DNA from: an uncultured Gemmataceae bacterium
Lineage (GTDB): Bacteria; Planctomycetota; Planctomycetia; Gemmatales; Gemmataceae
Assembly: GCA_963804745.1 (NCBI GenBank)
Contig: CAWDRY010000012.1
Coordinates: forward strand, 30,562-94,561
Direction of reading: 5' to 3'
DNA: 64,000 nt
Positions 42,118 to 57,421 of the stretch are shown piece after piece (the first letter of the stretch is position 1; each line of letters begins with the position of its first letter). Both the position numbers and the translations under genes were made by a program. The notes beneath the pieces are model-generated. The model did no database searches. It worked only from the letters and a program-made list of their open reading frames with translations, and was not told where the DNA came from.

Positions 42118-43523
42118 ATGGCGTTCAAGCAGTGGACTCGGCGTGATTTCCTCAAGGCAGGCACGGCTGCCCTTGCCGCCCCGGCCATCGTGCCGGCGCG
42201 CGTGCTGGGGCTGGACGGGGCTGCTCCGCCGAGCGAGACGGTACGCATCGGCGTCATCGGCTGCGGCGGCCGGGCCAGCTTCATCAAAGAGGGACGCGAT
42301 GTCAAAGCGTTCCGCGTCGTCGCGGCCTGTGACATTCAAATTGACAAGGCGGAGAAGTTCGCCAGGACCCATGCCGGCGGCGCGAAATGGGGCGTCTATG
42401 ACGATTTCCGCCAGATGATCGAGAAGGAAAAACTCGACGGGGTCATGGTCGAGACCCCCACGCATCCCCGAGCCTGGATCAGCATCCTGGCGATGCAGGC
42501 CGGCGCCGACGTGTACATTGAGAAACCCATGTGCTTGACCGTTGCGGAAGGTCGCGCAATCGTCAAGGCGGCCCGGAAACTCAAGCGCGTGACCCAGATT
42601 GGTACCCAGCAACGTTCCATGCCGATCAACAACTGGGCCAGCGACCTGATCAAGAACGGCGCCCTCGGCAAGATCAAGACAGTGCTGGCCCCGAACTTCG
42701 TCGGGCCGTTCCGCTGGACCAGGACCTCGGCAAAGGATGTCCAGACGCCGGTGGACCGCTGGTGGGACATCTGGCTCAACCAGACCGAGTTGCGTCCTTA
42801 CGATACGGCCCTGCACCGCGACTGGATGCGCTGGTGGGATTACGACGGCGGCGGGCTTACCTTCGGCGTGACCGGCTGGGGGGCCCATTCTTACGATCAG
42901 GTCAACCGGGCCTTGGGGACCGACAATACGGGTCCGGTGGCAGTGATCCTTGAAGAAAAAGTGGCGGAGCTCCCATCCGGCAAGTTCGATCGGATAATCA
43001 AGAAAGACGAACCGGTGATCGGCTTGACAGGAGACATCGATACCGGCATCAAGTACTTCGGCATGGCCAAACAGACGGGTCCGCGCGCCGCGTGACCATG
43101 AAGTTCGCCGGCGGGACGGAACTGAAGCTGCACCTGGACGCCGACAAGGGACCGGGCCTGGGCGCCGTCTTCATCGGCGCGAAGGGCACGATCGATATGA
43201 ACCGCGACTTGCTTGCGAGCGATCCCAAGGATATTGTACGTGTCAAGGACAACCCTGGTCCCAACACTCGGCCGGAATCCGCCTATCACCTGGAGAATTG
43301 GGTCCAGTGCATCAAGAGCCGCAAGACCTGCGCTGCGGATGTCGAGATCGGCCAGCGCGCCAATACTCTTTGTTGCCTGGTGAACATCGCCCGCGACCTC
43401 GGCCGCGTTGGCGAGGCCCTCCATTGGGACCCGGTAGCCGAGCGCTTCACCAACTGTGACGAGGGCAACAAGATGCTCACCCGCGACCGTCGCAAGGGCT
43501 ACGAACTGCCCGATGTCGGCTAA
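42118..43523 (+). CDS. Gfo/Idh/MocA-family NAD(P)-dependent oxidoreductase with twin-arginine signal; frameshift ~43085
   Basis: TAT motif TRRDFLKAG; Rossmann IGVIGCGGRA; EKP motif YIEKPM; C-terminal dimerisation domain continues in ORF 43092..43523. Confidence 0.8.
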
Positions 43524-43611
43524 AAACTGTGGAAAGAGTGAGTGGTGAGTGGTGAGTGGTGTGAGGGAAGGAAGGTTTGTGTGGGGCAGCAGAAGCGATG
43601 AGTGATGAGTA

Positions 43612-43712
43612 ACGGCACTGCTGGTTCTGGCGGCTGTGGCGGCGGTTGCCGCGATTGATAACATGGTAGCAATAGCCGCCAACGGCGGCTCTGGCGGTGC
43701 GTGGCATGAAGT
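43612..43712. repeat. ~100-bp direct repeat copy 1 containing 5' end of an IS200-like Y1 transposase gene (minus strand: MPRTARAAVGGYCYHVINRGNRR)
   Basis: shares ggcactgctggttctggcggctgtggcggcggttgccgcgattgata... with 44770..44872. Confidence 0.7.
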
Positions 43713-43833: not shown

Positions 43834-44124
43834 ATGGCACCATTGCTTGAATTGACGCCTGGCCACGTGGATGAGCCGCAAGCAGCCCAGGAGTTCGCTG
43901 CTGTCCTCAGCCGCGTCGCCGCGGATCGAAAGCCAATCATTGTCCGCCGCGCGGGTGCCGACTTGGCAGCCGTCGTCCCGCTTGAATATTTGGAGTGGGT
44001 GCAGGACATGCTAGCACGCCAAGAAGCCGAACGGCTTGCTTCCCAACTCGATTGGGACCGGCTAGTGAAAGCCTCACCTCCGCCGCAAAGTTGGTTTGAC
44101 CGAGACGAGCCGAAACCGTTTTAG
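43834..44124 (+). CDS. Phd/YefM-family antitoxin
   Basis: KPIIVRRAGADLAAVVPLEYLEWVQDMLA. Confidence 0.7.
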   Translation: MAPLLELTPGHVDEPQAAQEFAAVLSRVAADRKPIIVRRAGADLAAVVPLEYLEWVQDMLARQEAERLASQLDWDRLVKASPPPQSWFDRDEPKPF

Positions 44125-44142
44125 CGGCCAGGGAAGACGGAC

Positions 44143-44545
44143 ATGAAGCCGGTGCAATTCGGCCAGATAATCTGGGCGGAAGTTGCCGAACGCCAACGGC
44201 GTTCGCAAGTTGCGGCCAGCCGTTATTGTCACGGCCAATGATCGAATCACCGCATCGGGGCAATTGGAAGTAGTTGCCGTCACCAGCCAGGTTCCTCAGC
44301 CGCTGCCAGCGGACCATGTATTGCTCCCCTGGGATCCGCGCGGCCATCCACGTACCGGCCTCAACCGGAAGTGTGCGGCCGTATGCAGTTGGCTAGCTCG
44401 AATCGTTCCCAGTGACATCCAGAGCGTGGCAGGGTGGGTACCTGGAACGATCTTGCTGGACATTATGTCCAGAGTCGTTCCGGCGCCAGCTACGCCAAGC
44501 CCATCCTCTCCACCGGATTCCGGGGCCGGGTCATCGGGAAGTTAG
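44143..44545 (+). CDS. MazF/PemK-family toxin (frameshift ~44185)
   Basis: MKPVQFGQIIWAEV then KLRPAVIVTANDRITASGQLEVVAVTSQ. Confidence 0.6.
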
Positions 44546-44769
44546 AGATGCGCCAAGCCCCTCCAGCAACGAGCGGAAAATTGATGTGACACCGATTCAT
44601 CCTTGCGCTGGCGGAGCAGTTCTGACGTGAAACTGAAGCGCTTCGACATCGGCGTTTACGTCCACGAGGCGAAGAAGGACAACACGGTGTGGTACGACGA
44701 CGTGATGCTCTCGACCTGCTACATTGGCCCGGATAAGGCAAAGTGACAAGGAAACAGGCATGCAAATGG

Positions 44770-44872
44770 CACTGCTGGTTCTGGCGGCTGTGGCCGGCGG
44801 TTGCCGCGATTGATAGTATGGCAGCAATAGCCGCTGACGGCGGCTCTGGCGGTGTGTGGCATGGGTTCATTG
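44770..44872. repeat. ~100-bp direct repeat copy 2 (Y1 transposase 5' remnant MPHTARAAVSGYCCHTINRGNRR on minus strand)
   Basis: as copy 1. Confidence 0.7.
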
Positions 44873-45305
44873 TGAGCGACGGCGCGGGGGAAGGCAAGAA
44901 GAATCAAGTACATTCCTATTGAAGCGGTGAATGGCTGTGGGAATACAGTGGCAAGCCGTCCCGAGCATCGATGGGGGCAGTTTATGTGGCAATGGATAAC
45001 AGTGGCGTGGGAAGGGGTCAAATCGCTTTTGGGAGGAAAGGGAACGCTGCAAGTTGGCTCGCGCAACAAGTCCATCTCCGGTGTTACTATCGGTGACCAT
45101 GCCGGAAATGTCATCCTAGGCGACATTATGATTTCTACGCCGCCGGTCCTGCCGCCTCCCCAGCCACAGCTTTCAGATTACGCAAAACAGATTCTTCTTG
45201 GTGGGGCAGACGATGCCAGAGGCACAATCTATTTTAACCATACACAATTTGGATACGATCTCCATGCAGGAAAGACCCAGATTCGGGATTGCTCAGATAA
45301 TCGCC

Positions 45306-46518
45306 TGGTGTCCTTCTCGTATTGCACGGTAAGGCAGTCGTTTTGTATAAACTGGGTCGCCTTGTAACCAACGCACATGCCACGGAGGGCAAAGCATGGA
45401 CAACCTGTCACGGTTTTGTTGCCTGGATCCGGAGTGTCCAGACTATGGCAAACGTGGAGCCGGCAACCTGAGTGTCTGCAATCGCTACGGGGCCAACAAA
45501 CAACATCGCATGCTTCGCTGTGCTACATGCAAGGCCCGATTTTGCGAGCGGAAAGGCACGCCGCTCTTCCGAGCATGCTTACCCCAAGAGAAGATTCTCT
45601 CGATCTTGGCCCATATTGACGAAGGCTGTGGCGTCCGCAAGACCGGTCGGTTGGTCGGAGTGAACAAGGATACCGTTGTCCGTTACAGCAAACTTGCCGG
45701 CGAGCACGCCAAAAACCTCCACGACGAACTCGTGGCTTTTTCCCCCTCAGACGCGGGAGGTGCAGTTCGACGAAAAATGGGCGTTCGTCGGCAAGAAAGA
45801 GAAGAACTGCGACCCTGCCGATCCCGCTGATGACCGGCAGGGGGATAACTGGGACCATGTGGCTTTCGACCCCGAACACCGCTTGGTCGTGAGTGTTGTG
45901 CCAGGAGAACGCATCTCGGAGAATACCCAGGAAGTGGTGCAAGACTTCAAGAAGCGTACCGAAGGCCGGATTCCGAATCTCATCACCACGGACGAATATG
46001 CTGCTTACAAGACGGCCATCCTGGAGGCGTATGGGGAAGAGGTCATCCCCGAGCGGACTGGAAAACCGGGACGGCCCAAGGCGCCGTACCAGGTGCCGCT
46101 GGCCGACTTGAAGTATGCCACCGTGCATAAGACCCGGAAAAAAGGCCGGGTTGTGAAGATCGACCATCGAGTGGTGTTCGGGACGTTCGTGGCCGTAATG
46201 GCCGCGCTGGCATTGTCGAAGGCAAGCCGAGCGATCAACACAGCGTTCGTGGAACGGCACAACGGGACTGACCGGAACCGCAATGCTCGAAAGGTGCGGA
46301 AGACCTACTGCTTCTCCAAGGATTGGGACGTGCATCAGGCGGTGACCTATTTCACGATGTACAGCTACAACTTCTGCTGGCCGGTGCGAACCCTGCGTCA
46401 GCGTGACAGCGAAGGAGGATGGCAGGAGCGGACGCCAGCAATGGCCGCGGGTCTGGCCGATCATGTCTGGACCCTCACCGAATGGCTGACATTCCCAGCT
46501 TTGCAACGCGAATAGGAC
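45306..46518 (+). mobile_element. IS1-family insertion sequence (~1.2 kb)
   Basis: IRs ggtgtccttctcgtattgca (45306-) vs rc of tgcaacgcgaataggacacc (-46518); stop codon of orfB inside right IR as in IS1. Confidence 0.65.
45396..46515 (+). CDS. IS1-family transposase, InsA-like zinc-finger/HTH part (45396..45830) and InsB-like DDE part (45676..46515) in +1-offset frames
   Basis: CCLDPECPDYGKRG...CATCKARF; FDEKWAFVGKKEKN, ITTDEYAAYKTAI, AFVERHNGTDRNRNARKVRKTYCFSKDWDVH. Confidence 0.7.
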
Positions 46519-46847
46519 ACCAGGGATAATCGCAAAGTTGCTGAAATAAGGGCTGCCCTTCAAGAATTGCAGGACGTGGGGGCGATCGAAGTCTATGGAA
46601 ACGTCGGTTACAAGATCACTGATTCCGGATATAGACTCGCCACTGCCCTAAAGTTGTCAAGCAATTCTCAGCTCTGATCCTCTCGCATCATCGACATTTT
46701 GCGGTATTTTCGGCGGCGGGGTCAGAACTATGAAGAAAGGCGAAAAAAACGCAGGCCGCTGCCCGCGGTGCGATGGCCGAATTAAGTCGCCACTGAGTTC
46801 AGCTAATCTGTCGCGAGAAGCGAACCACGCCCCGTATTTCGGCCTCC

Positions 46848-47339
46848 TTGGTACTGTCACGGAGCATGAACATGTTTAGACCACACATTCCCAACCCTCA
46901 AGTGGTCGGCAACGTCGGCCTGTATTATGTTTGCTTCAAACTGTCGCTCAATGGCTGGAACGTCATGCCAACGTCGCGAAATGCGCCGGGCATTGATATC
47001 CTAATCTACAGCCAAGACGCGTCTCGAAAGCAGACAATCCAAGTTAAGGCGCGGAGGAAGGAGACTGATATCGATTTGGGAGACAATCAGACTTTCTTGT
47101 TTGATTTTCTAGTTGTCTGTCCGAACGTGATGACCGAGGAAGCCCCAAGATGTTTTGTACTGACCGAGGAGGAAGTCCGGCGGCTGTGTCGGCGCAAAAA
47201 GGATGGCAAATTCTGGTTGCGAGCGCGTGACTATAGGACCGATGGGTTTCGCGAGAACTGGGAGTTGATTGGATCGGGCCTCACTCCTCTCGCACCCTCA
47301 TCACGACCGCAGGCCGGGCCGATCACGTTGGGAAGGTGA
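46848..47339 (+). CDS. small Mrr-like restriction-endonuclease-fold protein
   Basis: GNVGLYYVCFKLSLNGWNV...APGIDILIYS...KQTIQVKARR (GxE...G(I/V)DI...QxK Mrr_cat-like). Confidence 0.45.
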   Translation: MVLSRSMNMFRPHIPNPQVVGNVGLYYVCFKLSLNGWNVMPTSRNAPGIDILIYSQDASRKQTIQVKARRKETDIDLGDNQTFLFDFLVVCPNVMTEEAPRCFVLTEEEVRRLCRRKKDGKFWLRARDYRTDGFRENWELIGSGLTPLAPSSRPQAGPITLGR

Positions 47340-47805
47340 CAGGTCGGGCCTCACTCCTCTCGCACCCTTAGTGCCGCTATTTGCCGCCGCGAATTCGGCC
47401 AACTAACTGGCAACCGCAACCATTGCAGCCTCCGAAGGCGGTTCGCCATGGCTTGTCGTGAGTTCGACGAGCAGGTCACCCAGCCGTGTCGGACCCGTTC
47501 CGGCCAGTGCCAACGGTCGAACAGATAGGCTCCAGCGGCAATGGGGACGGACTTGATATTAAAATCTCTGAGAATATGAAGTTCGTTCCCGTCGCCTTCC
47601 ATTGCCGCCAATGACCATACTGTAATAAGATGGACCAGAAGTAGGGAGGATCGTTCATGGTTCGCATTGTTCTTCATTCGCGCGTAGGCTCGTGGGGGGC
47701 CAAAGGGGACATTCCTCAATTCAAAAGTGGCCCAGCGTATCACGAACCGTAATGTATCAGCAACGTCATCTGCTCCGATCCCATTAGCGAAAAGCGAGGC
47801 ACCAC

Positions 47806-48021
47806 ATGAAAGTTGCGACCTTCCAGGGAATCATCGAAAACGGTCAAATCCGCTTGGCAGCTGGCGTGCGCCTGCCAGAGAAGGCAACAGTATACGTGGT
47901 CATCCCTGATGCGGACATTCCCGAGATAGCTCACATGAGCAGCCCAAGGCTCGCGCATCCAGAGCAAGCTGCGGACTTCAAGAAAGAAGTTGTTGAGGAG
48001 AATGCTGATGTCAGCCTATGA
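47806..48021 (+). CDS. DUF104-like small antitoxin-like protein
   Basis: MKVATFQGIIENGQIRLAAGVRLPEKATVYVVI. Confidence 0.4.
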   Translation: MKVATFQGIIENGQIRLAAGVRLPEKATVYVVIPDADIPEIAHMSSPRLAHPEQAADFKKEVVEENADVSL

Positions 48022-48398
48022 CGATGGCCGTTTCAACCCGCCTGCGCCACTGGCTAGAGTGACTCTTCGCCATCCAGAGAAGGGTAACACACTTCCTGAC
48101 GTGCCGCTGTTGATCGACTCGGGCGCCGATGTTACCTTGATTCCGCTCGTTTCTGCTAACCTGCTTGGCGTGACCGTCAATATGGGACAAGGTTATGAGT
48201 TGATGGGGTTTGATGGCAGCAGGAGTGTCGCGCGCCGTGCAACTCGATCTCCTCTTCCTGCGGCGAGCTTTCAAAGGGCGTTTTCTGCTCATCGACCAGG
48301 AATGGGGCGTCATGGGTCGCGATATTCTCAATCATCTGGCAATGTTGCTGCATGGCCCGCAACTGACCTGGAGCGAGCACCTGGATACTGAGAATTAG
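47990..48398 (+). CDS. retropepsin-like (clan AA) aspartic protease; frameshift ~48215
   Basis: PLLIDSGADVTLIP (D-S/T-G-A), downstream GRDILNHL in shifted frame. Confidence 0.5.
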
Positions 48399-48433
48399 TC
48401 AATCAAGGCCTGCAATCTGTCAAGGAGCTTTCC

Positions 48434-49222
48434 ATGCCTTCTCCGTTTCCCGGGATGGATCCTTACATTGAGAGAGCTGAGATCTGGCCCGATTTCCATG
48501 ATCGGCTCATCACGCACCTGTGCGGGGCACTCAACCCGCTCTTGCGACCGCGCTATGTGGCGTTGACCCAGGATCGTTTGTACGTGGTGGAATCGGAACG
48601 GCCCATTTGGCCCGATGTATCTCTCATTCGCACCTCGGTGCCGCAAGCCTCCACCGCCACTGCCTTACTCGAACCTGATGCGCCGGCAGTATTCGAGTTA
48701 TGGCGCGAAGAAATCCGCCAGCCGCTGATCCACATCCTGGAACCAGCCGCGGGCAACCGCATCGTGACGGCCATTGAGGTGCTTAGCCCCGACAACAAGG
48801 CGCCGGGGCCGGGCCGGGTGGCCTACATGAAAAAGCGTGAGGAATTCTGGGGCAGCGGTACGAACCTGATGGAAATCGACTTGCTGCGCGACGGCGAACT
48901 AACCGTGCGCGTTTCCGCTGAGAAGCTGGCGGGGTTGCGTCCCTGGCACTATCTGGTTGCCGTGACACGCCGCTGGCCTTCTCGCCAAGAAGTTTATGCC
49001 GTTCTTCTTCGACGCCGCCTGCCGTGTGTTGCGGTCCCTCTCGCCGAGAATGACCGCGACGTGCCACTCGATCTTCAGGCCGTGTTCACGCGCTGCTGGG
49101 AAGAAGGTCCTTACCCGGAACTGCTCCGCTACGACGGTCCGCCACCCAGTCCCCTGGCTGCTGATGAAGTGAGCTGGTGCGAAGAGCTGTTACATGCCGC
49201 CGGCTTACGGCCGTCAGCATAG
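48434..49222 (+). CDS. DUF4058-family protein (Uma2-like restriction-endonuclease fold)
   Basis: N-terminal PFPGMDPYIE...WPDFH; IVTAIEVLSPDNK...Y..KREEF..G.NLMEIDLL resembles Uma2 E-V-L-S-P-x-N-K core. Confidence 0.6.
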   Translation: MPSPFPGMDPYIERAEIWPDFHDRLITHLCGALNPLLRPRYVALTQDRLYVVESERPIWPDVSLIRTSVPQASTATALLEPDAPAVFELWREEIRQPLIHILEPAAGNRIVTAIEVLSPDNKAPGPGRVAYMKKREEFWGSGTNLMEIDLLRDGELTVRVSAEKLAGLRPWHYLVAVTRRWPSRQEVYAVLLRRRLPCVAVPLAENDRDVPLDLQAVFTRCWEEGPYPELLRYDGPPPSPLAADEVSWCEELLHAAGLRPSA

Positions 49223-49488
49223 CGATGGTTGATACATCGGTTCATGCGGGACCCATGACGAGTGTGTATGTGTGCATTGCGATTGTCAAGAAAAAAATAC
49301 CGAGGTTGCTTGACAGGGCTGGTGGGCAATGCTTGAATGATTGCGAACTGAGTGCCAACATCCGGTGATACGATGCCGGCACCGTGTCACGGTGCCGGCG
49401 CTGGGTGATATGGTCCTGGCAACTTACATATGGTGCCGGCGCCGGTTGGTATACTCACCAGTCAGGCCCTCGACAAGAGGAACAAGTC

Positions 49489-50280
49489 ATGACCCTTCCT
49501 GCCCCTGAACAGTTGCTGGCAAGCGCCGCTCGCTACCTGCTTGACGGTAAGGAGTATGACGCGGCGAGTCTCTTGGTCGCTTGTTCCCTGACGGTCGAAT
49601 CGGTCCTGCAGCACCAGAATGACTACCGCTCGGCTAAAGTGTCAATCCGTTGCCCCCGTACTCTTTGCGATATGGCGTTGGCCGTTGAGGCTTATTGGGA
49701 CAACATGGCGTGCGGCTACGAAGAGGCTGAGAAGGCGGTGATTGATTCCACCACCAAGACTCTTCGGCGCATCGAGACGGCAATCAAAGTTGTGATGCCT
49801 TCGACGATCAACGAGGTGGCGGTCAGCTTTCGCGCACAGTTGGTGGAACTGGATGAAGACTGGCGAAGAGAGCTAGCGGAGATCGCCCGCGGCAAGAGTG
49901 TACATAATCAGGCTACCGAAGCAGAGCGAGTGCTTATCTGGGCTAATCACCGGTTTCGCTCGCAGGCTGAGATCCGAATTGCCCAAGCTCTCGAAAAAGA
50001 AAAAATTCTGTTCTTTCCCAATTGCAAGGCTCGTCTGGGTTTTTCGTTGCGCGAGAACCGCGAGCCCGATTTCCTTGTTTGTTTCAAAGGCAAATGGGGA
50101 ATCCTCGAAGTAGATGGAGAGTTATTTCATCCGCCTTCCCGCACAGTAGAGGATCACGAGCGAGATCGGCTGTTTCAGGCTCATGGCATCAAGCTGGTTC
50201 AGCATTTTGATGCCGGTGAATGCTTCGAGAATGCTGGTGGTATTGTCAAGAAGTTCCTGTTTTTGCTGGAGCGGTCGTAG
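49489..50280 (+). CDS. hypothetical protein with C-terminal DUF559 / Vsr-like endonuclease domain
   Basis: REPDFLVCFKGKWGILEVDGELFHP...EDHERDRLFQAHGIKLVQHFDAGECFENAGGIV matches PDF...IExDG..H....D..RD..L...G..V.RF. Confidence 0.6.
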   Translation: MTLPAPEQLLASAARYLLDGKEYDAASLLVACSLTVESVLQHQNDYRSAKVSIRCPRTLCDMALAVEAYWDNMACGYEEAEKAVIDSTTKTLRRIETAIKVVMPSTINEVAVSFRAQLVELDEDWRRELAEIARGKSVHNQATEAERVLIWANHRFRSQAEIRIAQALEKEKILFFPNCKARLGFSLRENREPDFLVCFKGKWGILEVDGELFHPPSRTVEDHERDRLFQAHGIKLVQHFDAGECFENAGGIVKKFLFLLERS

Positions 50281-50330
50281 GTGCCTAACTAACAATGCCG
50301 TTGCTGTAGGCCCGTCCACGGGGGTGCTTT

Positions 50331-51182
50331 TTGTTCAAGAGGCTATTGACCACTCCGGAGGATGCGACATACGACCGGCTTCGCGAAACGTGCCGGCGCA
50401 ACTCGTCGGAAGTTTTCGCCAAGGTTCGCCTGGCGGATGTGCTGCCAATCGAGAGCAGTGGTATAGCCAACGACTTATTTCGGTTTGCCTTGCAGTCGCA
50501 CTTCGATTTTGTGATTGCGGATTTGTGTCACCTGCCACTCTTCGGGGTAGAATTCGATGGCCCTTCCCACGCTCAGGAGCCGCAAGTATTTCGAGACTCA
50601 AAGAAGAAACTGCTTTGCGAGCGGTTTCAGTTTCCTTTACTTCGAGTCAACGCAGCATACCTCAATCGGAGCTATCGCAATTTAGACTTGCTCACTTGGT
50701 TCGTGGAGACTTGGTTTTGCGCGAAGGGGTTCGAGGAAGCCCAACGAACAGGCCAGATTCCCTTGGACGAACCTTTCGATCCCTGCACGTTTCTATCTAT
50801 TCCGGGCTTACAGGGTCATTTTCCACTGTGGCTATCATCCGAACCCATGATGAAACTTCGCCAACTCGCAGAAGCCGGCAAGTGCGAAGACGCCGTGCCT
50901 GACTTTGTCATCGGTATCGACAACGATGGTATCTATCGAGGCGTCGAACACCTCCGTGTCAACAAAGAAGCTGCCATCATCACCTACACAGCCATGCGTA
51001 GCCAATACTTCCCTGTTTCAGAGGTGGACGCTATTCATGAGATTCTGCCCTTTCAAACCCACCAACTTCTTTTGGATGTACTTAACGGGGACGAACGCCC
51101 TCGGCCGGTTGCTGAGGTTAAGGCAGCGGCACAAGGGTTTTCTAAGTATGTTCGCCCGATACTCTCCGGGTCCAGTGGGTAG
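50331..51182 (+). CDS. hypothetical protein with N-terminal DUF2726 (NERD/REase-like) domain and unknown C-terminal domain
   Basis: SHFDFVIADLCHLPLFGVEFDGPSHAQEPQVFRDSKKKLLCERFQFPLLRV. Confidence 0.6.
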   Translation: MFKRLLTTPEDATYDRLRETCRRNSSEVFAKVRLADVLPIESSGIANDLFRFALQSHFDFVIADLCHLPLFGVEFDGPSHAQEPQVFRDSKKKLLCERFQFPLLRVNAAYLNRSYRNLDLLTWFVETWFCAKGFEEAQRTGQIPLDEPFDPCTFLSIPGLQGHFPLWLSSEPMMKLRQLAEAGKCEDAVPDFVIGIDNDGIYRGVEHLRVNKEAAIITYTAMRSQYFPVSEVDAIHEILPFQTHQLLLDVLNGDERPRPVAEVKAAAQGFSKYVRPILSGSSG

Positions 51183-51239
51183 GCCGGGCCTAACTTGCGT
51201 ATCGAGTAACTCCTGACTCTCAAATCGGAGGAGACCAAA

Positions 51240-51542
51240 ATGGCGACAACAGCGAAACAAAAGATAAGAAAGGGAATCATCGCCACGGCCCAACAAATAC
51301 TGGACTTCGCCCAGAAACGCGCTCCCGAAGTGGCCGACTGGCTGGAGTTACATTTTGCTCTCTTCGGTGCAGGCGGCAAGGCTGATAAGCTGTTTCCGAC
51401 AGAGGCCGAGCGAGCAGCGTTCTTGCGAACCACAGAATACAAGCAGCTTCTGGCGTTGATGGACCGCCTGCCTGCTTCGGGTCTGGTGTTGGGCAAGGTT
51501 GACAACCCCCATCCGATTCTGTCACAATCGCAATGTTCCTGA
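51240..51542 (+). CDS. hypothetical 100-aa protein
   Basis: ORF with plausible RBS (ggaggagaccaaaatg); no motif recognised. Confidence 0.35.
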   Translation: MATTAKQKIRKGIIATAQQILDFAQKRAPEVADWLELHFALFGAGGKADKLFPTEAERAAFLRTTEYKQLLALMDRLPASGLVLGKVDNPHPILSQSQCS

Positions 51543-51601
51543 ATCGCAAGTGAAAGCGCAACGAAGATGGAGAAATGCCCGTCCCAGGCGAGGAATCAGC
51601 C

Positions 51602-52378
51602 ATGTCGAGTCCTTTTCCCGGAATGGACCCCTATCTGGAACTCCCCGCCTATTGGTCTGATTTCCACTCGACGTTTATTAATTACTGGCGCGAGGCGATC
51701 GCGGATGCGTTGCCTCCGGACTACGAAGCTGCGCTCGGCGAGCGCGTCTACCTGGTCGAATACGACCCCGACGCACGCAAGCTAGGTTTTCCCAACGTCG
51801 CGGTCACCGAGATCGACCGCTCCCAACAAACCTCAGCCCAATCAACGGGGATTGCCACTCTGGAGCCAATCACCATCCCGCTCACCATCCTGGAAGGCCC
51901 CCGTGAAACGTACATCGAGATACTGCACCAGCCCGAGCGTCGCCTGGTCACGGCTCTGGAATTGCTTTCGCCGGCCAACAAGGAGCAACCAGGGCGCGCC
52001 GAATACCTGGCGAAGCGGCGGGCGTTACTCCACCAGGACGTGCATCTCATTGAACTCGATTTGCTACTGGGTGGCCAGCGAGTGCCACTTGAGCGACCGC
52101 TGCCCACGGCCGACTATTACTACCTCGTCGCCCGCACTGATCTACGTCCCGATTGTCAGGTGTACCCCTGGTCGCTGTCTGCGCCATTGCCGACTCTACC
52201 GGTTCCCTTGCGCACACCGGATTCGGATATTTTCATCAATCTAGCATCAGTCTTCGCGACAGCCTACGAGCGCGGCAGGTTCCGCCGCCGTCTCCCTTAC
52301 CGGGGACCGGTGCCCGGTTTTGTGCCCAAACAATCCCGCGCCTGGGTTGAATCGGTGTGCGCACAGATCATTCCTTGA
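51602..52378 (+). CDS. DUF4058-family protein, second paralog
   Basis: MSSPFPGMDPYLELPAYWSDFH; LVTALELLSPANKE...AEYLAKRRALLHQDVHLIELDLL. Confidence 0.6.
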   Translation: MSSPFPGMDPYLELPAYWSDFHSTFINYWREAIADALPPDYEAALGERVYLVEYDPDARKLGFPNVAVTEIDRSQQTSAQSTGIATLEPITIPLTILEGPRETYIEILHQPERRLVTALELLSPANKEQPGRAEYLAKRRALLHQDVHLIELDLLLGGQRVPLERPLPTADYYYLVARTDLRPDCQVYPWSLSAPLPTLPVPLRTPDSDIFINLASVFATAYERGRFRRRLPYRGPVPGFVPKQSRAWVESVCAQIIP

Positions 52379-52481
52379 TTATGGTCGGTAACCGATTCTT
52401 TGCGGTCGCTCGCCCTTCCAGTGACATTGCCGCCAATGACCATACTGTAATAAGATGGACCAGAAGTTGGGAGGATCGATC

Positions 52482-52727
52482 ATGGATCGCATTGTTCTTC
52501 ATTCGCGCGTAGGCACGAATGGCATCTTGCAACTTGCCGTGCCCATCGGTCCGGCTGACGCGGACCGGGAGGTGGAAGTTACCATCGCACCTGCTGAACC
52601 GAAACACAGAACAGTCTCGGAGCAGGAAGAATGGCGGCGGTTCGTCCTGGAAACCGCCGGAGCCTGGCAAGGCGACCTGGTGCGCCCCGAGCAGGGTGAC
52701 TACGAGCAGCGAGATGAATTGCCGTGA
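52482..52727 (+). CDS. DUF104-like small protein (second copy, shares 5' leader + first 11 codons with degenerate copy at 47657)
   Basis: MDRIVLHSRVGTNGILQLAVPIGPADADREVEVTI. Confidence 0.4.
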   Translation: MDRIVLHSRVGTNGILQLAVPIGPADADREVEVTIAPAEPKHRTVSEQEEWRRFVLETAGAWQGDLVRPEQGDYEQRDELP

Positions 52728-52842
52728 TTTACTTCCTCGAGCACTGGGGACGGACTTGAAATCTCTGAGGATATCAAGTCCGTCCCATTGCCGTCACAAT
52801 ATCTTGGCTGATTGGCAAGTTCGTCGGTAAGACCCGTCTGCT

Positions 52843-53214
52843 TCACATCCCCAGCAGCGGCTTGAGTTTGGCACGCACCTCGGCGGGCACGATCGCGATG
52901 TGGTCACTGCCCCGTTCTTGCCAATCGGCGCTCTTGACATGATCGGCCAGCACCACGCCTTGCACCGGCAGGCCCTGTGGAAGGGCGACCTCGAAGGCGT
53001 ACCCTTTCGCTTGTTGCGTCACTGGACACACCAGACAAAGCCCGACCTTCGCGTTATACGCGCGCGGCGACAACACCAACCCCGGACGCCGGCCCGCCTG
53101 TTCGCGGCCAGCATGCGGCGTGAAGGACAGCCAGATCAAATCGCCAGCGTCGGGAGAGTTCGCAGGGTCACCACGCCTCGCGCCCAACGGCCGAGCCCCA
53201 GTCCGTTTCGCCAT
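52843..53214 (-). CDS. mazF: MazF/PemK-family toxin
   Basis: GDLIWLSFTPHAGREQAGRRPGLVLSPRAYNAKVGLCLVCPVTQQ. Confidence 0.8.
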   Translation of the reverse strand: MAKRTGARPLGARRGDPANSPDAGDLIWLSFTPHAGREQAGRRPGLVLSPRAYNAKVGLCLVCPVTQQAKGYAFEVALPQGLPVQGVVLADHVKSADWQERGSDHIAIVPAEVRAKLKPLLGM

Positions 53215-53405
53215 GTATGTGCTCCGGTTTGATCTGCTTGAGCAACTCTTCCAGCGTGTACTCGGGCTTTCGCAGGCGGAGCAGCAAGCCGCCGTTCACG
53301 CGTGTCACTTCAAGTTCAGCCCCTTCTTCGAGTTCGAGTTCCCTGGCATAGGTTCCAGGAATACGGACCGCAAGGCTGTTGCCCCACTTGCCAACCTGTG
53401 TGTTC
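53168..53405 (-). CDS. mazE: MazE/AbrB-type antitoxin
   Basis: MNTQVGKWGNSLAVRIP SpoVT/AbrB swapped-hairpin motif; overlaps mazF start. Confidence 0.75.
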
Positions 53406-53479
53406 ATTATGGTTCTCCGTGTTTCTACTAAGTATATCACAGCAGCGGAGTCTGGCAACAGCGCTACTTGCGTTAACCC

Positions 53480-54796
53480 TCACCCCTTCCCCGCCTTCCT
53501 TTTCTCCCTGCCCCGCTCCACCCCTTCCGCTTCTTTCTTCGCCCGCTTGAACAGTTCCCGCTCCGACAATCCCCGATAGTACTCTGGCAACTCCAACGGC
53601 TCCAGCGGCTCCAACGGTTCCAACTCCGGCAGTTCCTCCAGATAGCAGGGATCATCCCGCCATTTCTCCTCCTTCCCCGGCAACCAGTACCGAAACGGAT
53701 CGCTCTTCCGCCCCGTCCCCGAGTGACACAGCAATCCCTGCTGCACCGCCCGCTCCAGCCAGCGCAGGAGACTTCTCTCCGAGGGACGATCCCACAGGCT
53801 CGGCCAGGCCTTGAGGATTTCGGTCCGCGACATCTTGTCCGTTGCATCGTCCAGCACCGTTCGCAGCCGATCCAGGTTCGTCATGTACTCCTCATCCTGA
53901 AAATCGCCATGTGCCAGGTAATCGTTGCCGTCGGCGTTCAGCTCGATCACCAGTTGCCGGGTCGTCTCCTAGTAACGCGACCAGGCTTGCAACCGGCGCC
54001 GCCGATCATCCGGCTCGGACGGATCGGCACAGGTCATCTCAATGATAATATCGACGTACCCGGCCAGAGCGCCGCTCCCTCGTGCCGCCTGGCCTGCTGA
54101 GCTTTCCCCCTTGCGAGGGTGGTGCATTACCAGCACGCTCATCCCGGCGTTGGCAAGGTGCTGCAACGGCCCCAGCGTTTCCAACATGCAGGCGGCATTG
54201 CTCTCGCCACGGCCGGGCAAGAACGATGCCAGCGGGTCGATCACTACCAGGTCGATGCCATGCTCGGCGTGCAGGTCGCTCAGGTGGTCCATGAATGCCA
54301 GCCATTGCTCCGCAGTCGGCTTGCCGCGGAACGGTCGGCAGAAGAAATGAACATGATTGCCGATGCCGAGCTTGCGGCCGCGCCGCGACCAGTGTGCCAG
54401 CCCCTCTTCGGAAACGACGACCGCCTTGCCGCGAGCGAGCGCCAGCCCCGCCAGTGTGCCGCCCTCCTTGAGCCGGGCCAGCAGGACCGATAGGAGCGTC
54501 GTCTTCCCCGTCTTCCATTGGCTTGTGAGCAGAGTGATGTTCCCCGGCGCCAGATAACCATGCCACAACCAGGCCATTTTCTCCTCGGCCGCTGAATGCA
54601 CCTCTTCCATCCATAACCCGAAAGCAGCGGCAGCTGGTGATGCTCCCGGATTCGTGCCACTCGAAGTGGCAATCGGCCTCGAAATCACGTTCTGTTCAAT
54701 GGGCAGACACGATGACGTTGCGGCCTCCGGAACTGTAACCGGAACGGATGTCATGACTTGCGGCTCACTCATCGCTGGCTCCTTTCTGGACAACAT
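53480..54796 (-). CDS. AAA_25 (RepA/RecA-like) P-loop ATPase typical of integrated elements, with C-terminal domain; frameshift ~53960; contains short CCAACGGYT SSR (53590-53640)
   Basis: LLTSQWKTGKTTLL, DLVVIDPLASF, SVLVMHHPRKG. Confidence 0.6.
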
Positions 54797-55030: not shown

Positions 55031-57421
55031 TTGCAGAGATGGAGTCAGACCATGAAGACTTTGCGGTGTGTTAGTTACTGCCTGTGCGGATTGGGATTGC
55101 TGCTTACCACTGTTGCTGCCGCGGCGGAGTTGCCCGCGTTACGCCTCGACTGGCACCACAAGGCCCCACCACTGCCGGCGCCTGCCGGCGAGGTGATCCA
55201 CGTCAAGAACGTGGACGAATTGTTTGCCGCTGCCGCGAAAATCAAACCCGGCGGCACCATTACCGTTGCCGAAGGGCGCTACGTGTTGCCGAGGCATCTG
55301 GAACTGAAGACCGACCGTGTCACTCTTCGCGGCGAATCCGGCCGCCGGGATGCTGTCATTTTCGACGGCGGCCCGTCGTCCCTGGGCGAGTTGGTATGGG
55401 TCAGCAAATCCTCGGGAGTGACCGTCGCCGACCTGACGATCGAGAACGCCCGCTGGAACGGTTTTAAGATCAACTCCGACATGGGCGCTACCCAGGTGAC
55501 GATCCACAATTGCGTGATCCACAACATTTGGCAACGAGGTGTCAAGGGGCCGGCCGTGCCGAAAGAGAAACGCGAGCATGATCGGCCAGAGCGTTGCCGG
55601 ATACAATATTGCCTTTTCTTCAACGATCGGGCGAAACAATACAACGACGATTCGGCGGACCGGGCCGACAACTTCGGCGGCAATTACGTCGGCGGCATCG
55701 ACGCGATGTATGCCAAGGGCTGGACAATCAGCGACAATGTGTTCTGCGGCATTCAGGGCCGAACCCGCGAAGGCCGAGGCGCGATTTTCCTCTGGCACGA
55801 TACCCAGGACTGCGTGATCGAGCGCAACGTGATCGTCGATTGCGACTGCGGCATCTGCCTGGGCAATTCCCACCGTCCTGCCAACGTGTCGGTCCACTGC
55901 ACTCGCTGCACGGTGCGCAACAATTTCGTCACGCGCTGCCCCGAGAACGGCATCCTGGCCGACTACACGCGCAACTGCAAAATCATCCACAACACGGTTC
56001 ACGATCCAGGTTCGCGGCTCGGGCGCCTGATCCGCCTGGTACACGACAACGACGGCCTGTTGGTGGCCAACAATCTCCTGAGCGGCCCGGCGATCCGCAT
56101 CGAGACCAAGAGTACGATAAAGATCGAGAACAATCTGACGAAGGAGTCCACAAGCCTGTTCCGTGACGCGGCACGGGGAGACTTGCACCTGAAGGCAGCA
56201 CTGCCGGAAGGCGGTCTGGTGCATCGTCTTGACGACGCGCCAGAGGACTTTGATCGCCGGAAGCGGGGAACCCCGACACCGGTCGGCGCCGATGATCCCC
56301 CAGCAGGTAAAGCGAGCGGCGAGGCAGGTAAAGCGAGCGGCGAGACAGGTAAAGCGAGCGGCGAGGCAGGTAAAGCGAGCGGCGAGGCAGGTAAAGCAAG
56401 CGGCGAGGCAGGTAAAGCAAGCGGCGAGGCAGGTAAAGCGAGTGGCGAGGCAGGTAAAGCGAGCGGCGAGGCAGGTAAAGCGAGCGGCGAGGCAGGTAAA
56501 GCGAGCGGCGAGGCAGGTAAAGCGAGCGGCGAGGCAGGTAAAGCGAGCGGCGAGGCAGGTAAAGCGAGCGGCGAGGCAGGTAAAGCGAGCGGCGAGGCAG
56601 GTAAAGCGAGCGGCGGGCTTGATGCCCGCCGTAACGAGGCCGATGTCGAAGACTGGGTTAAGCCGATGCGAGCAGTCCATGCCCGTTTCCACGGCAAGGC
56701 GGGCACGTTGGCTCAATATGGTGACAGCATCACCACGACCATGGCCTTCCTCGGCCCCCACGCCTGGGGTGAGAAAATTGACCCCAAGAACTGCCCGGCC
56801 GACATGCGCGCCGACCTGGATCTCGTCCAGCGCTACGCCAACCGCAAGTTGTGGACCGAGTGGAAAGGACCGCAATGGGGCAACGAAGGCTCGACGAAAT
56901 CCGACTGGCTGCTGGCACACGTGGACGAGTGGCAGAAGAAGATGCAGCCCGAGGCAGCCGTCATCCTCTTCGGCACGAACGACATCGGCCAAATCCCGCC
57001 CAAGCGCTATGCCGAGAACCTGGAAGCCGCGCTGCGCCGGATGATAGCCGACGGCACGGTCCCCATCCTGACAACGATCCCGCCGAAGTCGGGTGCGGAA
57101 GCGGCGGCACGCGAATATCGGGACACGGCACTCGCAGTGGCCCGCAAACTCCAGATACCGGTCATCGATTACCAGGCCGAGATTTTGCGGCGGCGGCCGA
57201 AGGACTGGGACGGCCGGCTGGAGAAGTTCGGTCCCGTGAAGGACGTGTACGAAGTACCCACTCTCATCTCCGGCGACGGCGTACACCCGTCGAATCCCAA
57301 GCAATACCAGAACGATTTCAGCCAGGAAGCCCTGGATGGCAGCGGCTACAATTTGCGCAACTATATGACGCTTCGCGTCTACGCGCAGGTGATCCGGAAG
57401 GTGTTGGCGAAGGGCGAGTAG
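55031..57421 (+). CDS. secreted multidomain protein: signal peptide, PbH1 right-handed beta-helix domain, (GKASGEA)n linker, C-terminal SGNH/GDSL-like hydrolase domain
   Basis: signal MKTLRCVSYCLCGLGLLLTTVAAAA; NCVIHN/NNFVTRC beta-helix rungs; ILFGTNDIG SGNH block; real start maybe 55052. Confidence 0.7.
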   Translation: MQRWSQTMKTLRCVSYCLCGLGLLLTTVAAAAELPALRLDWHHKAPPLPAPAGEVIHVKNVDELFAAAAKIKPGGTITVAEGRYVLPRHLELKTDRVTLRGESGRRDAVIFDGGPSSLGELVWVSKSSGVTVADLTIENARWNGFKINSDMGATQVTIHNCVIHNIWQRGVKGPAVPKEKREHDRPERCRIQYCLFFNDRAKQYNDDSADRADNFGGNYVGGIDAMYAKGWTISDNVFCGIQGRTREGRGAIFLWHDTQDCVIERNVIVDCDCGICLGNSHRPANVSVHCTRCTVRNNFVTRCPENGILADYTRNCKIIHNTVHDPGSRLGRLIRLVHDNDGLLVANNLLSGPAIRIETKSTIKIENNLTKESTSLFRDAARGDLHLKAALPEGGLVHRLDDAPEDFDRRKRGTPTPVGADDPPAGKASGEAGKASGETGKASGEAGKASGEAGKASGEAGKASGEAGKASGEAGKASGEAGKASGEAGKASGEAGKASGEAGKASGEAGKASGEAGKASGEAGKASGGLDARRNEADVEDWVKPMRAVHARFHGKAGTLAQYGDSITTTMAFLGPHAWGEKIDPKNCPADMRADLDLVQRYANRKLWTEWKGPQWGNEGSTKSDWLLAHVDEWQKKMQPEAAVILFGTNDIGQIPPKRYAENLEAALRRMIADGTVPILTTIPPKSGAEAAAREYRDTALAVARKLQIPVIDYQAEILRRRPKDWDGRLEKFGPVKDVYEVPTLISGDGVHPSNPKQYQNDFSQEALDGSGYNLRNYMTLRVYAQVIRKVLAKGE
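56303..56613. repeat. 21-bp tandem repeat (ggtaaagcgagcggcgaggca) x~15, in-frame
   Basis: read directly. Confidence 0.9.

Follow-up and report, generated by a model that had tools for sequence, protein, structure and literature searches.

The question raised by this locus is whether a dense run of nuclease-fold genes lying next to mobile DNA constitutes a cooperating anti-phage system. The window, i.e. the whole stretch of 64,000 nucleotides analysed from an uncultured Gemmataceae bacterium, holds eight consecutive plus-strand genes, here called g1 to g8, which an earlier note had interpreted as a candidate novel defence island. The reading favoured here, at a probability of roughly 0.7, is that the region is a variable, mobile-DNA-rich stretch, where unrelated stand-alone genes have piled up without cooperating and where several of them are decaying.

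Organization and composition of the region

All eight plus-strand open reading frames were borne out, coordinates included. As for the nuclease and antitoxin domains ascribed to them, DUF4058 (g4 and g8) and DUF2726 (g6) stood, DUF104 (g2) did not, and g1 and g3 gave sub-threshold matches only. The data support a stretch rich in mobile DNA, compositionally foreign and dense in PD-(D/E)XK-fold genes, an assignment supported by Pfam for g4, g6 and g8, by fold for g5 and by motif only for g1. Five such genes in 5.5 kb, as counted inside the window only, is a striking density, a point against the favoured reading.

Regarding base composition, the GC dip reported around 46.5-47.3 kb is real and modest (0.52-0.53 at 46.5-47.2 kb vs. 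a window mean of 0.60), and GC3 is more telling: whereas core genes have 0.73-0.80, g4 and g8 stand at 0.67, and g1, g2, g3, g5, g6 and g7 at 0.49-0.62. Since GC3 is unequal gene by gene and lies under the core values, and since BLASTP aligns g4 with g8 at just 36% identity, a mosaic origin is indicated. The genes g5, g6 and g7 have a similarly low GC3 (0.58-0.60), are co-oriented and are separated by short gaps.

The mobile setting of g1-g8 comprises an IS1 with inverted repeats, MazEF, an AAA_25 protein, repeated transposase fragments and a 93-nt repeat. On the left, the IS1-family insertion sequence (45304-46524, plus strand; Pfam DDE_Tnp_IS1, 33 bits, with a weak HTH_Tnp_IS1 match) encodes an InsA-like protein (45396-45830) and InsB (45676-46515) and has inverted repeats of 23 nt at its two ends (45304-45326 and 46502-46524). 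On the right, the minus-strand mazEF pair (52843-53458) consists of MazF (52843-53214; PemK_toxin, E 5.9e-19) and MazE (53168-53458; MazE_antitoxin, E 1.6e-10). Among the surroundings invoked for a defence island, Pfam thus recognises IS1, MazF, MazE and AAA_25, a Phd/PemK-like pair (43834-44545) stays below threshold, and the supposed Y1-transposase remnants are N-terminal fragments of about 23 codons recognised by motif only. Besides, two palindromic hairpins related to each other, neither assigned to a strand, are found at 47538-47599 (a strong one, GGGGACGGACTTGA...; fold energy -30.6 kcal/mol, z -4.55) and, between the convergent g9 and mazF, at 52741-52795 (-32.6 kcal/mol, z -6.0).

Damaged and unassigned genes

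The first gene, g1 (46848-47339, plus strand; 155-163 aa), belongs to a conserved family of about 150 aa with 307 homologues and without a Pfam model. It carries a PD-(D/E)XK-like motif, GIDIL...IQVK, with the D...Q-V-K pattern, and its description as Mrr_cat-like is suggestive without being confirmed: Mrr_cat_2 scores 15.6 bits vs. a cut-off of 22 (E 0.015), the same weak match occurs in 7 of 32 family members (best E 0.012), and no PDB profile matches. At columns conserved in at least 90% of the family, the window copy (GC3 0.62) deviates at 15 of 65, the other members doing so at no more than 7 (median 2), so that it looks degenerate, with many conserved residues apparently lost. Next to it, g2 (47806-48021, plus strand) is a 71-aa ORF that runs 32 nt into g3; DUF104, to which it had been likened, does not match at E<=0.1, nor does any family of Pfam, NCBIfam, PADLOC or PHROGs at that threshold. 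Its antitoxin-like pattern was seen by visual inspection only.

The retropepsin-like g3 (ORF 47990-48391, plus strand; 47990-48398 once its C-terminus, which carries on in ORF 48210-48398, is included) is broken by a frameshift near 48230. From about there on, the annotated frame has a GC3 of 0.33, as against 0.60 before, and the other frame one of 0.66. The protease assignment holds as to the DSGA motif (LIDSGAD) and fails as to the profile, gag-asp_proteas (PF13975) reaching 14.9 bits vs. a cut-off of 28.2 (E 0.042), and the reconstructed protein has no match at E<=0.01.

Further downstream, g7 (51240-51542, plus strand) had been taken for an unknown protein of 100 aa. It proves to be the 3'-truncated remnant of a family of about 135 aa with 137 representative clusters, of which it retains the N-terminal 78-86 residues, homology ending at 51473-51488. 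Full-length relatives end, in the alignment, in a ribbon-helix-helix tail '...VRLPKSVHAALLAEAEAEGVSLNQL...', which we take to be of HicB type; with full-length members as queries, tblastn recovered residues 1-78 to 1-86 only and no tail in any frame of the window. For want of that tail, the window copy was not counted among the HicB-type ribbon-helix-helix antitoxins.

Three of the eight genes, namely g1, g3 and g7, are thus damaged. Given the residue loss of g1, the frameshift of g3, the tail loss of g7 and the lack of a family for the 71-aa ORF of g2, these four genes lend no support to a system.

Intact genes

The four intact genes are g4, g5, g6 and g8. Both g4 (48434-49222, plus strand; core IEVLSPDNK) and g8 (51575-52378, plus strand) are full-length DUF4058 (PF13267) proteins, as had been proposed, with 214.4 bits (E 2.3e-63) and 221.5 bits (E 1.5e-65), respectively, vs. 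a cut-off of 25, each over profile positions 1-253 of 254. They are anciently diverged from each other, and their PD...E-V/L-L-S-P-x-N-K core looks, on inspection and as the earlier note had it, Uma2-like, which would make it of PD-(D/E)XK type. Uma2 (DUF820) and DUF4058 are predicted endonucleases that occur in multiple copies in bacteria, cyanobacteria among them; in the literature searched, DUF4058 is not mentioned.

The 264-aa protein encoded by g5 (49486-50280, plus strand, from an internal start in an ORF opening at 49384) has two domains. The C-terminal one adopts the Vsr/DUF559 fold with the motif E193-x-D195-FL...E208-V-D210-G...H215, that is a Vsr-type PD-(D/E)XK fold whose core keeps the acidic and histidine residues. 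The DUF559/Vsr-like call of the earlier note consequently holds by fold and not by sequence profile: nothing in Pfam or NCBIfam matches g5 at E<=0.1, DUF559 and Vsr-like models (PF04480, PF03852) included, nor does any PDB entry by sequence or profile. Some relatives are named 'very-short-patch-repair endonuclease' in JGI records. The N-terminal domain, which spans about 135 aa, showed no detectable relationship to any protein whose fold is known. The family counts 589 sequence clusters across phyla, including methanogenic archaea.

The two-domain, 283-aa protein of g6 (50331-51182, plus strand) does start with the DUF2726 domain (PF10881) attributed to it (residues 4-109; 49.5 bits vs. a cut-off of 24.7), a Vsr/TnsA/RAP-like PD-(D/E)XK domain present in 120 of 120 homologues among the matches listed. 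The remainder, some 170 aa, is a C-terminal extension that is likewise conserved and wherein an alpha-beta-beta-beta-alpha unit resembles dsRNA-binding domains. The dsRBD-like scores are modest given so small and common a fold. The family has 308 sequence clusters and is likewise cross-phylum, and the association of a DUF2726 nuclease with a dsRBD-like domain is not described in the literature or libraries searched.

Gene order in other genomes

Related loci were fetched with two peptide patterns per family, which gave a sample made up of 50 genome loci for g5 and the best 80 of 351 for g6, many of the g6 metagenome contigs being short. DUF4058, g7 and g1 were sought therein by single-sequence HMMs, from which distant relatives may escape. 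Relatives of g6, g7 or DUF4058 occurred within about 8 kb at 0 of the 50 g5 loci; g5 or g7 occurred at 0 of the 80 g6 metagenome loci (best 80 of 351) and DUF4058 at a single one of this best 80 of 351 (L061). The earlier note had named co-occurrence of the gene order elsewhere as the test of a DUF4058-g5-g6-DUF4058 module, and its absence as the refuting outcome, which is the one obtained. The order is present here and kept in none of the sampled loci from other organisms: g6 lies downstream of g5 in 0 of the 47 (out of 50) g5 loci that extend 900 nt or more on the downstream side, the place expected of g6, and g5 lies upstream of g6 in 0 of the 52 g6 loci, among the best 80 of 351, with at least 900 nt upstream.

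The closest relatives (68% identity for g6; 69% and 58% for g5) adjoin HEAT/SLFN_AlbA_2 genes, a DDE_3 transposase with hipBA, and an HTH_3 gene, and the g5-g6 pairing is absent from them; more distant ones, in one Pirellulaceae and one Chloroflexi genome, stand alone among metabolic genes. All-against-all clustering of the flanking ORFs returned no partner family in more than three independent loci. The nearest neighbours, mostly housekeeping, amount to 210 Pfam families among 149 neighbours for g5 and 98 among 134 for g6, none of these families being found on more than three neighbours. The only other contig with this gene order is a 99.6%-identical one (L001), where g5-g6-g7 recur as a block. 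These three genes may therefore share a single arrival and a common transcript, a further point against the favoured reading.

Origin and function of the gene string

How the block came to its present place can be approached from a 93-nt direct repeat, D1, whose plus-strand copies at 47600-47692 and 52425-52517 are 96% identical and provide the flanking direct repeats expected of an integrated element with att-like ends. The right copy leads into the full ORF of g9 (52455-52727, plus strand; 90 aa, of no family and without significant Pfam match). The left copy carries a duplicated ribosome-binding site and the first 12 codons of g9, appears to hold the g9 promoter region too, and opens, from 47656 on, no more than a relic ORF of 31 aa. 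Since both copies contain the beginning of g9 and enclose g2-g8, these genes may have come to lie here by recombination or insertion at this point. It is conceivable, if rather doubtful, that g2-g8 (47693-52424) are one discrete inserted cassette mobilised in trans, the D1 copies being recombination junctions at the g9 5' end: the repeat flanks the block exactly, the left copy leaves just a g9 relic, GC3 in the block is under that of core genes, and contig L001 stops 30 nt into the right copy, as expected at an assembly repeat. Pfam finds no integrase or transposase domain in g2-g8, however, GC3 is mosaic within the block itself (0.49-0.67), and the damage to g7 and g3 inside it implies several events. 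Much further from plausible is that g4 and g8 act as ends of a composite transposon with g5-g7 as cargo, by analogy with TnsA, a PD-(D/E)XK transposase subunit. Two same-family genes in direct orientation do flank the cargo, and the truncation of g7 and the break in g3 lie shortly ahead of g8 and g4, respectively, but the g4 and g8 proteins share only 36% of their residues, terminal inverted repeats and DNA similarity are undetectable, just one of the 130 sampled loci has DUF4058 beside a relative of g5 or g6, and the literature searched holds no report of transposition by DUF4058. A composite transposon, which calls for near-identical flanking elements and terminal inverted repeats, was rejected, no DNA repeat joining g4 to g8.

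As for function, the notion of a single new multi-gene anti-phage system with jointly acting nucleases, made up of g1-g8 or else of the smaller set DUF4058-g5-g6-g7-DUF4058, draws on the tight, co-oriented spacing on the plus strand, the nuclease folds of g4, g5, g6 and g8, the neighbouring IS1, MazEF and AAA_25, and the identical order in the 99.6%-identical contig. It is nonetheless very improbable and largely refuted by the neighbourhood data. The order recurs in 0 of 130 sampled loci from other organisms and is absent from the closest relatives, no partner family recurs, g5 and g6 relatives sit mainly among housekeeping genes, three genes are damaged and the DUF4058 copies are far apart in sequence. 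The PADLOC-DB 2.0 models match none of g1-g9, their sole hit being a 12-bit mad8 match on the neighbouring AAA_25 protein. A defence system or module is therefore unsupported, although a lineage-specific functional interaction may be compatible with the lack of conservation. More conceivable, and still unlikely, is a reading of g5, of g6 or of both as defence nucleases that work as single genes and are neighbours here by chance. Such a nuclease could, for instance, be type IV-like, its accessory domain reading a modified DNA or a duplex that contains RNA and its Vsr-like domain making the cut. Against this reading, the relatives' neighbours are mostly housekeeping without enrichment in defence genes, PADLOC gives no match, the g5 N-domain has no structural relative, the dsRBD-like scores of g6 are modest, and the reader role of the accessory domains is purely conjectural.

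Under the favoured reading of independent genes piled up, the intact g4, g5, g6 and g8 most likely each act alone. The g5 and g6 families are widespread, patchy across phyla and solitary in unrelated genomic contexts elsewhere, a distribution suggesting horizontal spread. Their accessory domains would pick a specific nucleic-acid substrate, marked out by its structure, by a modification or by the type of duplex, which the Vsr-like domain would then nick or cut; such a choice of substrate would explain why g5 and g6 need no immunity or methylase partner. A bolder and somewhat less probable proposal than single-gene defence makes g5 and g6 two undescribed stand-alone nuclease families with their own targeting domain, g5 uniting a new fold of roughly 135 aa with a Vsr/DUF559 nuclease and g6 a DUF2726 nuclease with a dsRBD-like domain. 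They would serve as one-gene immunity or genome-surveillance devices for special nucleic-acid forms (modified DNA, RNA-DNA hybrid or dsRNA) and, in this organism, would have been captured together in the 93-nt-repeat cassette.

In practice, the candidate multi-gene defence system is to be dropped, which spares cloning the whole block. More generally, where nuclease-fold genes crowd together next to insertion sequences and toxin-antitoxin loci, they can amount to a graveyard of unconnected selfish or solitary genes rather than to a system. The lasting value of the locus lies in g5 and g6, both intact, which represent two large, uncharacterised families of solitary Vsr-like nucleases that extend across phyla, the former with an N-terminal domain without recognisable fold relative and the latter with an architecture new to the literature and libraries searched.

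Comparison with known systems

The Vsr, DUF559 and DUF2726 families were grouped in one PD-(D/E)XK clade by Steczkiewicz et al. 2012 (PMC3424549). Relative to this clade, of which E. coli Vsr (1cw0), Neisseria NGO0050 (3hrl) and the homing endonuclease I-Bth0305I (3r3p) are members, g5 falls below every Pfam and NCBIfam model and adds its N-domain, whereas g6 adds its conserved extension with the dsRBD-like unit. Unlike true Vsr, neither gene has a cytosine methyltransferase partner and, unlike I-Bth0305I, neither has an intron or intein context. As for other families, Uma2 accounts for 3 of the 149 neighbours recorded for g5 relatives, and the HicB-type antitoxins and regulators probably share their tail form with the full-length relatives of g7, the window copy being without it. 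Compared with the type IV enzymes PvuRts1I and AbaSI, which combine a Vsr-like nuclease with a reader domain, g5 and g6 have accessory domains that are not SRA-like and are alike in architecture only (a nuclease plus a second domain and no partner gene), which indicates a possible mode of action and not membership. Finally, the region differs from defence islands in having no recognised defence system or defence-gene model and in its three decayed genes, and g5 and g6 relatives are not usually found in such islands, but it resembles these islands and other accretion zones in its IS1, MazEF, AAA_25 ATPase and transposase fragments, its lower GC3 and its several solitary nuclease genes.

Conservation of gene order

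The eight plus-strand ORFs between IS1 and mazEF, namely g1 (46848-47339), g2 (47806-48021), g3 (47990-48391), g4 (48434-49222), g5 (49486-50280), g6 (50331-51182), g7 (51240-51542) and g8 (51575-52378), were found where an earlier note had placed them, and a small ninth ORF, g9 (52455-52727), follows g8 before the convergent mazF. In that note, the DUF4058 genes g4 and g8 were considered to bracket g5 and g6 as a module, a reading to be refuted by a gene order not conserved elsewhere, and this was tested from both the g5 and g6 sides. Related loci were retrieved by two peptide patterns per family and constitute samples, in which DUF4058, g7 and g1 were sought using single-sequence HMMs; the closest relatives were not among these samples and were looked up separately. 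On the g5 side, a scan with one genome per species gave 50 loci encoding a g5 relative, distributed among Planctomycetota, Chloroflexota, Acidobacteriota, Desulfobacterota, Ignavibacteriales, Calditrichaceae, cyanobacteria and Methanothrix/Methanosarcinales archaea. Relatives of g6, g7, g1 or DUF4058 occurred at none of the 50 in flanks of up to 8 kb, at least 900 nt being available downstream, at the expected position of g6, in 47 of them. On the g6 side, a metagenome scan yielded 351 loci, and no g5 or g7 relative was present among the best 80 of these, where many contigs were short and at least 900 nt upstream were available in 52. The sole other sampled case of a DUF4058 gene neighbouring a g6 relative (1 of the best 80 of 351) is locus L061 (3409-4227 and 4538-5371), where it lies directly upstream of a relative with 49% identity, which is compatible with chance.

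Regarding the closest relatives, that of g6 at 68% identity is flanked by a HEAT-repeat gene and a SLFN_AlbA_2 gene, that of g5 at 69% identity is cut short by a DDE_3 transposase and adjoins hipBA, and another of g5 at 58% identity adjoins an HTH_3 gene. Two more distant relatives, one from Pirellulaceae and one from Chloroflexi, each stand alone amid metabolic genes. All-against-all clustering of the flanking ORFs revealed no family common to more than three independent loci. Similarly, a Pfam scan of the two nearest genes on each side returned 210 different families around g5 relatives and 98 around g6 relatives, mostly housekeeping, none of them on more than three neighbours of g5 or g6 relatives; a few further lone nucleases (Uma2, HNH, Mrr_cat) and PIN/Phd genes were encountered near g5 relatives. 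The order g5-g6-g7-g8 recurs only in L001, a 3-kb Logan contig, which at 99.6% identity to the window is effectively the same strain. With the order absent among the sampled loci and closest relatives, and no recurring partner among the sampled loci, the module is not conserved, and g5 and g6 belong to solitary-gene families.

Full-length g5-family genes are also present in Methanothrix/Methanosarcinales MAGs (L018, L019, L026 and L035; 42-48% identity), so the family has crossed the boundary between bacteria and archaea. In a further set of loci, mostly cyanobacterial contigs (L039-L053), the only part of g5 represented in the encoded proteins (260-400 aa) is its C-terminal nuclease domain (about 125 aa, 40-56% identity), fused to differing N-terminal regions, which indicates that this domain is a shuffled module. 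On viral contigs, g5 relatives were found at two loci and g6 relatives at one, all reduced to the nuclease domain, and a phage homing-endonuclease origin of the full-length families is thus not supported.

Domain assignments

Pfam matches extend over the full length of both DUF4058 genes (E 2e-63 and 1.5e-65 for g4 and g8, respectively), and the DUF2726 domain of g6 scores 49.5 bits against a cut-off of 24.7, in agreement with the earlier note. Residues D195 and E208 of g5 have D59 and E74 as their counterparts in g6. The Mrr_cat-like character ascribed to g1 corresponds to an Mrr_cat_2 match that stays below threshold (15.6 bits vs. a cut-off of 22) and the retropepsin-like character of g3 to a likewise sub-threshold gag-asp_proteas match (14.9 bits vs. 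28.2). Neither Pfam nor NCBIfam searches gave any match for g2, g5 or g7, and no PADLOC defence model was matched by any of the eight genes. The roughly 135 residues that make up the N-terminal domain in g5 have no convincing structural relative, Foldseek of g5 against the PDB returning no significant match, and PDB sequence and profile searches with g5, g6, g4 and g1 gave no meaningful match, the beta-2-microglobulin matches of g4 being noise. In PHROGs, two weak matches were obtained, to g1 only, the function of both being unknown. A close paralogy of g5 and g6 was discarded, as family-against-family hhalign pairs their catalytic cores only, with a probability of 6%. In the literature searched, no mention of DUF4058 was found, and papers on DUF2726, DUF559 and Uma2 report no tested function for the subfamilies seen here.

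Condition and composition of the genes

Both g5 and g6 retain all invariant columns of their families and deviate at 3/76 and 0/56, respectively, of the columns conserved at 90% or more, as is typical for family members; judged from these alignments, both look functional. The g1 copy deviates at 15/65 such columns, other members at a median of 2 and at most 7, which points to relaxed constraint. Across the g1 stop codon lies a perfect 25-nt direct repeat (TCGGGCCTCACTCCTCTCGCACCCT; 47274-47298 and 47344-47368, 70 nt spacing). The frame of g3 shifts near 48230, the retropepsin-like C-terminus ('...GVMGRDILNHLAMLLHG...') being encoded in an overlapping ORF (48210-48398), and the annotated frame has a GC3 of 0.60 before and 0.33 after this point, where the other frame has 0.66. 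The g7 family (137 representative clusters) comprises proteins of roughly 135 aa, which when full-length terminate in a ribbon-helix-helix tail; the window copy aligns only over residues 1-78 to 1-86, with no tail in any frame. GC3 forms a mosaic across the region, with 0.49-0.62 for g1, g2, g3, g5, g6 and g7, 0.67 for g4 and g8, 0.65 for g9 and 0.73-0.80 for nearby core genes.

Repeats, hairpins and surrounding genes

A 93-nt direct repeat unreported in the earlier note, D1, is present at 47600-47692 and 52425-52517 (96% identical). Included in it are the initial 12 codons of g9 with their ribosome-binding site and, seemingly, the g9 promoter region. The left copy leads merely into a 31-aa relic ORF (from 47656), followed by g2, so that the two copies, 4825 nt apart start to start, enclose g2-g8; this arrangement may be a scar left where recombination or insertion took place at the 5' end of g9. 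Two very stable palindromic hairpins, one directly left of the left D1 copy (47538-47599; z -4.6) and one between the convergent g9 and mazF (52741-52795; z -6.0), are related (GGGGACGGACTTGA...TCAAGTCCGTCCC) and resemble REP elements. That a degenerate third copy of g9 precedes the left hairpin was rejected, the local alignment score coming almost wholly from the hairpin. A promoter/terminator scan gave no result above shuffled sequence, and Rfam no matches over 43-55.5 kb.

Among the neighbours, IS1, MazF, MazE and AAA_25 were all borne out by Pfam. As for the toxin-antitoxin systems claimed, mazEF holds and the Phd/PemK-like pair at 43.8-44.5 kb has only a weak match. The Y1-transposase remnants do show the resemblance proposed, but as fragments without Pfam match: repeats of about 100 nt (43611-43708 and 44765-44863; 91-97% identical) each encode, on the minus strand, the first ~23 codons (MPR/HTARAAV.GYC.H.INRGNRR) of what looks like a Y1/RAYT-type transposase. 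Beside mazEF, a minus-strand AAA_25 (RepA/DnaB-like) ATPase gene followed by a 156-aa ORF without family (53480-54796) looks like the pairs typically carried by small integrative or plasmid-like elements, and may be another mobile remnant. Further out, a GFO_IDH_MocA-type oxidoreductase is divided over two overlapping ORFs (42118-43095 and 43092-43523), probably through a frameshift or sequencing error as its C-terminal domain model runs across both, and a 796-aa beta-helix and GDSL-lipase protein (55031-57421) displays a long central run of tandem GKASGEA heptads (roughly 56.3-56.7 kb).

Origin of the region

The explanation favoured here, with a probability of about 0.7, is that the region would be one in which mobile and selfish DNA accretes. 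Adjoining IS1, mazEF and the AAA_25 gene, it would have seen independent single-gene units (the two DUF4058 genes, g5 and g6) pile up, together with pieces of other genes, namely g1, g3, g7, the g9 relic and transposase fragments. In g5 and g6, the accessory domain could pick a particular nucleic-acid substrate, which the Vsr-like domain would then cut; such a choice of substrate would account for no immunity partner being needed. That each of the two is a one-gene defence nuclease would be compatible with accretion, and is regarded as a rather unlikely addition, PADLOC models having matched neither.

A single cassette comprising g2-g8 and inserted at D1 is also compatible with the accretion zone and given similarly low credence: the repeat copies enclose just these genes, but no recombinase lies within them. 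Two other readings conflict with accretion. The multi-gene system of the earlier note, to which the shared strand of the eight ORFs lends itself, is very improbable with a gene order that recurs only in what is effectively the same strain. Even less credible is a composite transposon with DUF4058 ends; g4 and g8 do stand on either side of g5-g7, and share 36% identity, which makes them old paralogues or separate arrivals and not a recent duplication.

Comparison with known systems

By their nuclease domains, g5 and g6 are members of the Vsr/DUF559/DUF2726 clade of PD-(D/E)XK enzymes. Steczkiewicz et al. 2012 (PMC3424549), who described this clade, already reported DUF2726 as a domain of unknown function with many transfers and a Planctomycete/Chloroflexi clade. 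Overall, the region exemplifies an ordinary variable island. The g5 and g6 families are uncharacterised fusion variants within a known kind of nuclease, both intact here.
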